From assembly GCA_038279365.1 (NCBI GenBank), contig JAYODI010000107.1, positions 1,534-16,547 on the forward strand: a stretch of 15,014 nt of DNA, in the 5' to 3' direction. How positions within the stretch are numbered: the first letter of the stretch is position 1; each line of letters starts with the position of its first letter. The stretch is from Candidatus Latescibacterota bacterium (GTDB taxonomy: Bacteria > Latescibacterota > UBA2968). Both the position numbers and the translations under genes were made by a program. The notes under the pieces are model-generated. The model had not been told where the DNA came from. It did no database searches and saw only the letters and a list, made by a program, of their open reading frames with translations. Of the stretch, positions 1,883-14,042 are shown piece after piece.

Positions 1883-2236
1883 TTACGTCTTTCGGATGAG
1901 GTTTGATAGTGCTGCGAATATATGATTGATTTGTTGTGCGATTTTAGAAATTTCAGGATCTGAGATGTAAGCAAGATTTTTTGCAATTTCAAGTTGTGTA
2001 TCCACTTCAACCAACGATGACCGTGCGATCTCGTAGAAACGCTTTCTTTCATTTACGGAACTTCTGGATGCACCTTCTGCAATATTTGAAGGTACCGAAA
2101 TAGCAGCTCTTCGAATTTGACTGGTTAATCCGTACATTTCAATTTGTGGAAATTGTTGGGTCATTTTGTAAATAGCGCTAACAAACTGAATACTCAGCTG
2201 CCAAGCTTGAAGGTTTTTGTGATTTAACTTGAGCAT
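1883..2236 (-). CDS. Four helix bundle protein (23S rRNA IVS protein-like family), 117 aa
   Basis: Motifs HKNLQAWQ, FPQIEMYGLTSQIRRAAISVPSNIAEGASR and ARSSLVEVDTQL are characteristic of the family. The start is placed at the ATG of MLKLNHK because the longer ORF start lies inside the repeats. Confidence 0.9.
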   Translation of the reverse strand: MLKLNHKNLQAWQLSIQFVSAIYKMTQQFPQIEMYGLTSQIRRAAISVPSNIAEGASRSSVNERKRFYEIARSSLVEVDTQLEIAKNLAYISDPEISKIAQQINHIFAALSNLIRKT

Positions 2237-2251
2237 TGATTGGTTGTGGAC

Positions 2252-2287
2252 TTTCCGCGTTTGCCGTTTCACATTTGCCGTTTCACT
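2252..2287 (+). repeat. Degenerate tandem heptamer repeat (TTTGCCG/TTTCACW), inverted relative to 1839-1866
   Basis: TTTCCGCG TTTGCCG TTTCACA TTTGCCG TTTCACT; TTTGCCG is the reverse complement of CGGCAAA. Overlaps the TGA stop of the adaptor gene. Confidence 0.8.
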
Positions 2288-12578: not shown

Positions 12579-12659
12579 TTTTTACTATATATTTTTCAAG
12601 TAAAAAAATATAAATGCAGGTATGTTTTTTAAAAACAATCATATATTTTTCAAGTGATT
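12579..12659. promoter_or_regulatory. Candidate operator pair for the HxlR-family regulator
   Basis: Identical 15-mer ATATATTTTTCAAGT at 12587-12601 and 12641-12655, each with palindromic flanks (TTTTTACT...AGTAAAAA; AATCA...TGATT), in the divergent intergenic region. Confidence 0.55.
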
Positions 12660-12709
12660 ACGTTTTATTTTGTTCGAATGGTGTGTTTATTATCAAAAGC
12701 GAGGTGTTT

Positions 12710-13354
12710 GTGGCACGGTCTTATGGTCAGTTTTGCTCGCTTGCCCGCGCATTGGATATGGTGGGAGAACGGTGGACACTGTTGGTGATTCGCGATTTGT
12801 TGGGCGGGCCAAAGCGGTATAAAGATTTGCTTGGGAGTTTGGTGGGTATTGGCACCAATTTGTTGGCCAATCGGTTAAAAGAGTTGGAGGCGAGTGGTTT
12901 GGTGATACAAACAACATTGCCTCCTCCATTATCTGTGAAGGCCTATCAATTGACCGAACGGGGGCGTGCATTAGAGCCCAGTATTGTGGCATTGGCCGAT
13001 TGGGGTTTGTCATTGCTTGAAACGCCAAAAGGAAATGACCATTGGTTCCCACAATGGAATCATGTGGCGTTTAAGGCGCGTTTTCAAGCGGATGCTGCAA
13101 AGGGTGTGAAAGAGGCGTATGCATTTGTGATTGATGGATACCCGCATTATGTGGTGGTGAATGATGGTTCGATGCGGACGTTTGAAGGGGAGGCACCCAA
13201 TGCGGCTTTTACATTGACTGCAAGTCGGGAGTGTTTCTTGGGGGTGATCACAGGCGAGCAAACATTTGAAGAAGCGATTGCATGTGGCAACATCACATTG
13301 GAAGGCGATGTGGCGGCGTTTGAACGCTGTGGTCGTATTTTTGGGAATAGATAA
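12710..13354 (+). CDS. HxlR-family winged-HTH regulator with C-terminal SCP2 sterol-binding-like domain
   Basis: RSYGQFCSLARALDMVGERWTLLVIRDLLGGPKRYKDL...LANRLKELE...YQLTERGRAL; the C-terminus ends AIACGNITLEGD (SCP2-like). GTG start after a GAGGTG RBS. Confidence 0.92.
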   Translation: MARSYGQFCSLARALDMVGERWTLLVIRDLLGGPKRYKDLLGSLVGIGTNLLANRLKELEASGLVIQTTLPPPLSVKAYQLTERGRALEPSIVALADWGLSLLETPKGNDHWFPQWNHVAFKARFQADAAKGVKEAYAFVIDGYPHYVVVNDGSMRTFEGEAPNAAFTLTASRECFLGVITGEQTFEEAIACGNITLEGDVAAFERCGRIFGNR

Positions 13355-13378: not shown

Positions 13379-13419
13379 AAAAAAAGCGTCGCTCTCTAAA
13401 AAGAACGACGCTTTTTTTT
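13379..13419. terminator. Bidirectional rho-independent terminator
   Basis: AAAAAAAGCGTCG...CGACGCTTTTTTTT between convergent genes. Confidence 0.9.
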
Positions 13420-13436: not shown

Positions 13437-14042
13437 TTACTCTGCTGTTAATGCTTTGATTGCTGAGATTGTATTTTCACTGTCTAATGCGGCTTTGACA
13501 CCTGTGTCTTTGTAAATGATTTTGCCATTTTTGCCAATGATAAAGGTCCATCGTTTTGCAGAGACCCCTCGGGTTAAGGAAAAGTCTTCGCCGTTTATGG
13601 TTTTATTGATGGTGCCACCTTTGCCCAAGGGCACGCCAAATGCCTTGGCAACGTTTCCTTCCGTGTCGGCCAAGAGTGTGAAATTGAGGTCGTTTACTTT
13701 CTTGAAGATGCGTTGACCTTCTACGGTGTCACCACTCACGCCAATGATTTGTGCGCCCAACTTTTTTAATGCTTCGCTATCGTCCCGATAGCTGACGGCT
13801 TGTCTGGTTCAACCACCTGTTAAAGCTGCAGGAAAAAAATAGACCACCAAGATGCTTTTGCCAATGTGATTATCCGATTTCCACAATTTGCCGCTGTCTG
13901 CTTTGGCTTGAAATGTGGGTGCTTTGTCGCCTATGTTGATTCCCAGTGTATCGGATGTGGCAGGTTCGTGTGTTTGTGCATTTGTGGATGGTGTAAGGAA
14001 AAGCAATCCCAATAACACAAATCCATAAAGTGTTTTTCTCAT
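13437..14042 (-). CDS. Selenocysteine-containing peroxiredoxin (BCP/PrxQ, AhpC/TSA family) with signal peptide, 201 aa
   Basis: ORFs 13809-14042 and 13437-13760 are in the same frame. Reading through TGA (13809-13811) gives VVYFFPAALTGG-U-TRQAVSYRDD...LGAQIIGVSGD, placing TGA exactly at the peroxidatic Cys of PxxxTxxC. Also has LNFTLLAD and RWTFIIG motifs. Confidence 0.9.
13771..13808 (-). promoter_or_regulatory. Bacterial SECIS-like hairpin
   Basis: The mRNA after UGA reads ACCAGACAAGCCGUCA-GCUAUCG-GGA-CGAUAGC-GAAGC: a perfect 7-bp stem (13776-13792) with a G-starting apical loop 23 nt after the UGA. Confidence 0.75.

Follow-up and report, generated by a model that had tools for sequence, protein, structure and literature searches.

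A Latescibacterota gene interrupted by a single TGA very probably encodes an exported, cysteine-free selenocysteine peroxiredoxin of the BCP/PrxQ type

The window analyzed here is a stretch of 15,014 nucleotides from a Candidatus Latescibacterota bacterium (assembly GCA_038279365.1, contig JAYODI010000107.1). On its minus strand, translation table 11 yields two ORFs in the same frame: 14042..13809, which encodes 77 amino acids and begins with ATG, and 13760..13437, which encodes 107 amino acids and begins with TTG. Joined, they make a single frame of 201 codons (14042..13437, minus strand) that ends in a TAA stop and contains one internal TGA, at 13811..13809, as codon 78. There is no longer alternative start because the next upstream in-frame stop lies nine codons before the ATG. 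The features of the gene and its downstream flank are as follows.

13437..14042, minus strand: whole read-through gene for a BCP/PrxQ-type peroxiredoxin, assigned by its AhpC-TSA match, PDB sequence match, and predicted fold
13977..14042, minus strand: predicted Sec-pathway signal peptide, residues 1-22 (MRK, a hydrophobic core, and TNA, followed by Q23), called by a heuristic in a stretch of low pLDDT
13809..13832, minus strand: active-site motif P71-A-A-L-T75-G-G-U78 (PxxxTxxU), with P71, T75, and position 78 invariant in the subfamily alignment
13809..13811, minus strand: in-frame UGA, codon 78, at the peroxidatic residue, probably read as selenocysteine (homologue alignment, orthologues)
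13794..13796, minus strand: codon of Val83, the +5 position, which is Cys in 119 of 121 aligned rows
13776..13792, minus strand: SECIS-like hairpin GCUAUCG-GGA-CGAUAGC within codons S84-S89 (stem search, conservation)
13557..13628, minus strand: predicted beta-hairpin insertion, residues 139-162 (gap relative to 2ywn; modelled strands 139-149 and 152-162)
13551..13553, minus strand: codon of Arg164, the conserved peroxiredoxin arginine (R164-W165-T166 invariant in the subfamily alignment)
13379..13418, unstranded: strong hairpin between A and T runs, likely a two-way terminator (folding energy -24.3 kcal/mol, z = -8.0)

In the joined frame the residues around the TGA read VVYFFPAALTGG-U-TRQAVSYRDDS, the immediate context of the UGA being FFPAALTGG-U-TRQAV. 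The initial annotation had described two ORFs joined by one TGA at the Cys of a PxxxTxxC motif, a product with no Cys at all, Val at the place of the usual BCP resolving Cys (CxxxxC), and a gene that standard annotation would split. All of this was borne out: the TGA is the only one in the frame, the 201 amino acids of the window’s protein contain no Cys, the +5 position is Val83, and table 11 yields two ORFs. The Pfam AhpC-TSA match runs straight across the TGA, covering residues 37-177 (8.2e-27; 94 bits against a cut-off of 26).

Downstream of the gene, the 13379..13418 hairpin probably terminates both the peroxiredoxin gene and a convergent HxlR-type gene; a consensus terminator scan missed this hairpin and folding revealed it. 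The product of the convergent neighbor (12614-13354, plus strand) is a winged-helix regulator of the HxlR type whose C-terminal part is Alkyl_sulf_C (SCP2-like). Redox sensing is a property of some members of the HxlR family. Elsewhere in the window (1883-2272, minus strand), a gene of the 23S rRNA-intervening-sequence-protein family (PF05635) lies within an ABC/MacB-HlyD efflux gene cluster.

As to which residue belongs at codon 78, the homologues make a stronger case than the local stem does. We aligned the protein with its best 120 full-length database homologues, which are 47-60% identical to it and, where named, come from Planctomycetota, Latescibacteria, and Omnitrophota. As the initial annotation had anticipated for this column, the TGA position is Cys in 120 of the 121 rows, and apart from one protein (P0002) the homologues carry an active-site Cys. 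P0002, the 121st row, has Trp at this column; it stems from metagenome contig L090, which carries the same gene with TGA in its DNA, and therefore the public gene caller had applied a TGA=Trp code. One of the “Cys” rows, P0037, differs at two positions from the TGA-bearing L093 and represents either a true Cys allele or a Sec annotated in the source. Within the window, TGA terminates three of the 12 Pfam-supported genes as an ordinary stop, and it is not a general sense codon in this genome.

An AlphaFold2 model built from a 48-row alignment had a mean pLDDT of 90.2, with means of 54-61 over the first 30 residues, a drop that a leader would be expected to show. The top Foldseek matches were all BCP/PrxQ proteins, Xanthomonas PrxQ entries included (9a4d_B, 5epf, 3drn, 5enu, and 5iow; E values 5e-17 to 4e-14, TM-scores normalised to the target 0.84-0.91), and the best PDB sequence match was 3drn (2.2e-17). 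The predicted fold is thus that of BCP/PrxQ, a thioredoxin-type peroxiredoxin, in agreement with the type first assigned. The subfamily alignment shows no variation at P71, T75, position 78, or R164. R164, invariant within R-W-T-F, corresponds in 3drn to the Arg of “ARITFVID”. Residues 139-162 are modelled as a 24-residue beta-hairpin, an element that is conserved throughout the exported subfamily but has no counterpart in solved BCP/PrxQ chains.

In a six-frame search, unselected and covering 41 genomes (40 relatives besides the window’s own), orthologues turned up in three of the relatives: G002 (79% identity), G001 (76%), and G007 (53%, from another genus). All three have exactly one TGA, at the same codon, and the same hairpin. 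Phylum-wide, the gene was detected at E <= 1e-30 in only four of the 168 genomes searched, these three and the window’s own. Over the 120 codons downstream of the TGA, comparison with L048 gave 32 synonymous-only and 18 replacement differences, and comparison with L049 gave 42 and 53, respectively. Both halves of the gene are under purifying selection. Decay of the downstream frame and an unconserved hairpin in close relatives, which the initial annotation had named as signs against a selenoprotein, were not seen; TGA, frame, and hairpin were kept in all orthologues found.

The hairpin after the UGA, GCUAUCG-GGA-CGAUAGC (13792..13776), is a perfect 7-bp stem that starts 16 nt after the UGA and has its loop 23 nt after it, just as first described. 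We sampled 11154 TGA triplets of this genome and found a perfect stem of at least 7 bp with its loop 16-37 nt downstream at 179 of them (1.6%). The 66-nt region as a whole folded no better than shuffles (z = -0.18), and only the local stem is notable in it. The window’s clade has five distinct sequences, and the 17 nt of the hairpin do not differ among them. Relative to the 53%-identical L049, the codons of conserved degenerate residues are identical in five of five cases inside the hairpin as against 32 of 87 outside. The hairpin encodes a conserved peptide (S/G-Y-R-D-D-S) and therefore its conservation is partly at the level of the protein. As it is invariant in the window’s clade, there is no covariation there, and the support it receives is that of synonymous-site conservation.

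Other Sec clades have hairpins over the same codons, some slightly further 3′, with complementary changes in the two arms: GGCUUC/GAAGCC in L079, GGAUUC/GAAUCC in L058, and GGUUUC/GAAAUC in L060, L061, L066, and L070. A common SECIS consensus was rejected for the set of 39 distinct Sec sequences, since arms and loop sizes vary among clades. We also rejected the idea that the hairpin is shifted by 6 nt in the window’s clade, as several other clades have hairpins over the same codons. A weakly discriminating control was provided by the DNA of Cys forms: a perfect stem of at least 7 bp occurred in none of 14 Cys forms versus nine of 40 Sec forms, and the mean best-hairpin energy was -9.3 versus -13.2 kcal/mol, with G+C content differing between the two sets. 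Rfam had no match at the hairpin and, in the intergenic region, only sub-threshold terminator-like matches. At 3 nt, the GGA loop would be a small one for SelB to bind. The 13792..13776 hairpin is a stem-loop directly 3′ of the UGA, as a SECIS element should be, and a putative site of SelB binding.

The window’s genome (46% G+C) has selA, selB, selD, and tRNA-Sec clustered at C34:31069-36920, so that the search for selA, selB, selC, and selD proposed in the initial annotation found all four above their curated cut-offs.

selA, contig C34: 592 bits, curated cut-off 268
selB, contig C34: 379 bits, curated cut-off 242
selD, contig C34, itself with one in-frame TGA: 367 bits, curated cut-off 125
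tRNA-Sec, contig C34: 68 bits, curated cut-off 47

The selA and selB matches contain no in-frame stops. As far as genes can show, this genome is able to insert selenocysteine.

The same genome (G000) contains further genes of related type. A second TGA-interrupted BCP-like gene, at C93:59328-59636 (minus strand), reads FYPRASTGG-U-TAEGL and has neither a leader nor a Cys at +5; it is likely a cytoplasmic Sec-peroxiredoxin. Two Prx-like U-x-x-C candidates were also found, one at C16:32793-33191 (minus strand; GHW-U-PHC) with a signal-peptide-like leader and one at C134:59407-59724 (plus strand; ANW-U-GYC).

The window’s stretch was present, whole or in part, in 20 of the 23 sequencing runs listed, from 12 estuary, marsh, and marine metagenome studies. 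The TGA is carried by independent assemblies, namely L090, L085, and a contig of DNA run X4. On the other hand, the sole contig of DNA run X5 (marine, depth 4.7) has two plus-strand changes, T>C at 13809 and C>T at 13804, which on the coding strand give TGG (Trp) at the Sec codon and R80K; it otherwise has two further differences over 713 nt. There is thus at least one natural variant without the UGA. The initial annotation had named reads with TGT or TGC in place of TGA as a ground for refutation; the X4 contig has TGA, and the TGG of the X5 contig is not a Cys codon. Of all the observations, only the X5 contig speaks against the Sec reading, and its TGG may be a natural loss-of-function allele. 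Contigs from two RNA runs (X18 and X20) match the downstream half of the gene, over 13518-13782 and 13493-13643. They stop short of the UGA and are therefore silent on the upstream half; as evidence of transcription of the gene they are weak at best.

Since Sec forms are cut in protein databases, we scanned DNA for the pattern PA..TGG-TGA-T[KR]QA, which had 10 matches on genome contigs and 40 on metagenome contigs. Four of these 50 (L047, L051, L053, and L077) were rejected as chance matches where the gene is absent, leaving 46 real Sec-form loci. The resolving Cys is kept (UT[KR]QAC) in 38 of the 46, four of them on Planctomycetota genome contigs. In the other eight, all members of the window’s clade (L046, L048, L049, L056, L072, L085, L090, and L091), the +5 residue is V, I, or Q. 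Pattern scans of this kind could find TGA forms only and are therefore uninformative on how frequent Sec forms are. In an unselected sample of 301 Planctomycetota genomes the subfamily occurred in 15, of which 13 had Cys forms only and two had a TGA form (G171 and G168, the latter being the genome on which the search was centered). Exported Sec forms of the BCP/PrxQ subfamily are common. One Planctomycetota gene (L050, at G171:C11:15875-16903) encodes a pair of PrxQ domains in a single frame, with a TGA (Sec) at the active site of the first domain and Cys in the second; the database protein P0003 is the part of this gene that follows the TGA.

The +5 column of the homologue alignment is Cys in 119 of the 121 rows, the two exceptions being the query and P0002, and among Sec forms the loss of the resolving Cys is found only in the window’s clade. 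The clade is not wholly cysteine-free, as a Ser located 110 residues past the Sec is replaced by Cys in L072 and L091. We built two trees, each from a quick IQ-TREE search, unrooted, with SH-aLRT support only and with the active-site column masked. For the first, of 101 rows, we took every second listed Cys protein (59 rows) and each distinct Sec form that was near-complete. In it the seven Sec rows without a resolving Cys formed one group (support 81; 99 for the inner six rows), nested in a starred group of 18 rows whose other members are Cys forms and a second, separate U-x4-C clade. At least four Sec/Cys changes were forced by well-supported branches.

Close homologues had suggested a link to selenium, since all 119 Cys rows and all 14 Cys-form DNA sequences keep the resolving Cys. 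Widening the search to 1.84 billion cluster representatives gave a list of 149 proteins, 48 of which were motif-less or fragments. The 103 motif matches in the remainder comprised 78 Cys forms with a Cys at +5, 24 Cys forms without one, and one protein with Trp at the active site; six of the 24 contain just one Cys overall. The proposal that selenium allowed the loss of the resolving Cys was therefore rejected as a rule: distant Cys-type relatives also lack this residue, and so selenium is unnecessary for its loss. In the second tree, of 128 rows, the Cys forms without a resolving Cys had at least three separate origins and the window’s clade was one group (support 98). Path lengths to the window’s clade were at least 1.57 for these Cys forms and 0.74-1.0 for proteins that keep the resolving Cys. 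As the former lie far off in the tree, the loss in the window’s clade is a separate event. The window’s protein is a 1-Cys-type (here 1-Sec) member of BCP/PrxQ. A resolving Cys, at +5 or else in helix 3, is typical of this subfamily without being obligatory, and a protein that lacks it is still within the family.

The N-terminus of the protein (MRKTLYGFVLLGLLFLTPSTNA) opens with a basic stretch, goes on to a hydrophobic core (mean Kyte-Doolittle hydropathy 2.8 over 10 residues), and has T-N-A before Q23; by this heuristic it looks like the cleavable signal peptide that had been proposed. The same hydropathy test was passed by 37 of 38 distinct Sec-form leaders, so the whole subfamily appears to be exported. 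We found no conserved redoxin beside the gene, either in the window’s neighborhood or at L027, L028, L029, L082, and L094. The upstream gene encodes a BD-FAE esterase in the window, L027, and L028, and a sulfatase on L029, L082, and L094. These sulfatases (L029:2-1447, L082:1-435, and L094:1231-1620) adjoin the Sec-PrxQ gene at three loci in two clades; the adjacency may be chance in sulfatase-rich genomes. The window’s genome has a single DsbD_TM gene, on C31, of the DsbD/CcdA type of membrane electron carrier.

These features suggest how the protein could be made and could work. SelB with Sec-tRNA(Sec) would be recruited by the hairpin 16 nt past the UGA, and codon 78 would be read as Sec. 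Judging from its leader, the pre-protein would be exported through the Sec pathway and cleaved after Ala22, giving a periplasmic or secreted product. As a peroxidase, its selenolate, placed by Thr75 and Arg164, would attack a hydroperoxide and become selenenic acid. The protein has neither a resolving Cys nor any other, so the oxidized selenium must be reduced from outside. The reductant would most likely be an exported redoxin of the thioredoxin fold, using either a dithiol or a selenol-thiol pair and fed by the single DsbD/CcdA-type carrier; the exported U-x-x-C redoxin encoded on C16 is a candidate. It could be speculated, quite tentatively, that the envelope runs a glutathione-peroxidase-like cycle with one selenol, in which an exported redoxin resolves the selenenic acid. 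This would amount to an extracytoplasmic selenium-to-selenium relay, perhaps with the cell’s own U-x-x-C selenoprotein as partner. In such a cycle the enzyme, being cysteine-free, could not be disulfide-locked by the periplasmic oxidizing Dsb machinery.

We consider it very probable that 14042..13437 encodes an exported Sec-containing peroxiredoxin of the BCP/PrxQ type that ordinary gene calling splits. One other explanation of the split is a pseudogene, in which a nonsense mutation struck a former Cys-peroxiredoxin and left a 77-residue fragment or no product. Table 11 does yield two ORFs, and the TGG contig shows that the codon can mutate in nature; however, orthologues of 53-79% identity retain the TGA, both halves are under purifying selection, the genome has the complete Sec machinery, the hairpin is kept at synonymous sites, and 38 further loci of the subfamily have a TGA here (in a scan that could detect TGA forms only). 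The pseudogene reading is very improbable and close to refuted. Less probable still, in our estimate, is an ordinary amino acid at the UGA, either Trp or Cys, inserted in place of Sec through near-cognate decoding or because the genetic code is altered. The Trp in the public translation of the L090 gene (P0002) and the Trp encoded by the X5 variant would fit such decoding, but TGA ends three of 12 Pfam-supported neighbors, selA and selB match without in-frame stops, and Trp as the peroxidatic residue would inactivate the enzyme, which is at odds with its conserved catalytic set.

If the protein is an exported PrxQ-fold selenoprotein, its main job may still be something other than the bulk removal of peroxide: it could be a selenol relay or sensor, or a reductase of oxidized envelope proteins or small molecules. 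The lack of a resolving Cys would make turnover wholly dependent on a partner, the 24-residue beta-hairpin insertion could be a surface that binds a partner or substrate, and the genome’s other Sec/Cys peroxiredoxin-like genes could handle peroxide. We regard this as improbable, because the full peroxidatic set (P71, T75, U78, and R164) is invariant across the subfamily, the closest relatives are ordinary C-x4-C PrxQ proteins, and thiol peroxidase activity has been measured for the exported BCP/PrxQ protein PprX according to the accessible part of the source (PMC3322552).

The founding case of a Sec-peroxiredoxin is reportedly PrxU of Eubacterium acidaminophilum, from the work of Sohling in 2001. 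The window’s protein is unlike PrxU in that NCBIfam NF040737 gives it 37.6 bits against a cut-off of 270, and it is no PrxU equivalog. “Peroxiredoxin (Prx)”, COG1225 (Bcp) / PF00578 with the motif TxxU, is a catalogued prokaryotic selenoprotein family according to the available portions of two papers (PMC9312934, PMC13188914), and the available portion of another counts 12 members and five Cys-to-Sec events (PMC1794560). Like this family, as far as these excerpts describe it, the window’s protein has the UGA at the peroxidatic Cys of PxxxTxxC, a predicted peroxiredoxin fold, and a putative SECIS directly after the UGA. On the other hand, its export leader, its 24-residue insertion, and its lack of Cys are unmentioned for catalogued Sec-Prx in the available text of the three papers (PMC9312934, PMC13188914, PMC1794560), and the BSepDB paper (PMC13326102) does not mention peroxiredoxin.

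A closer resemblance is to the exported U-x4-C PrxQ selenoproteins of Planctomycetota and of soil, sediment, and water metagenomes, which share with the window’s protein 47-60% identity, the leader, the insertion, the Sec position, and the hairpin codons. The difference is that all 38 of those loci keep the +5 Cys, whereas the window’s clade has V, I, or Q. The 1-Cys BCP/PrxQ relatives also have no Cys at +5, but they use Cys where the window’s protein would use Sec. PprX of Caulobacter crescentus is an exported BCP/PrxQ peroxiredoxin whose reductant is TlpA; TlpA receives its electrons from ScsB, and DsbD can substitute and can reduce PprX as well, as the accessible part of that study reports (PMC3322552). 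Like PprX, so far as it is described there, the window’s protein would be a signal-peptide-bearing BCP/PrxQ enzyme of the envelope that relies on an exported thioredoxin-like reductant. Unlike the window’s protein, PprX uses Cys, together with a resolving Cys placed otherwise than in E. coli BCP, in the same portion of the study (PMC3322552). We found no description in the literature of an exported Sec-PrxQ without a resolving Cys, and our searches on Latescibacteria selenocysteine, PrxQ resolving cysteine, and selenenic acid returned nothing on this subfamily.

The window’s gene belongs to the broad catalogued Sec-Prx family. Each of its ingredients is known separately, and the loss of the resolving Cys is the particular point; no new class of system is opened by the finding. 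For annotation, it means that table-11 calling splits this gene, and the same is expected for many exported Sec-PrxQ genes of Planctomycetota and of sediment and soil metagenomes. For the family, the subfamily is a natural comparison set of C-x4-C, U-x4-C, and U without a resolving Cys. Such a set could show what selenium contributes to rate and to over-oxidation resistance, and by what route an exported peroxidase is recycled without a resolving residue.
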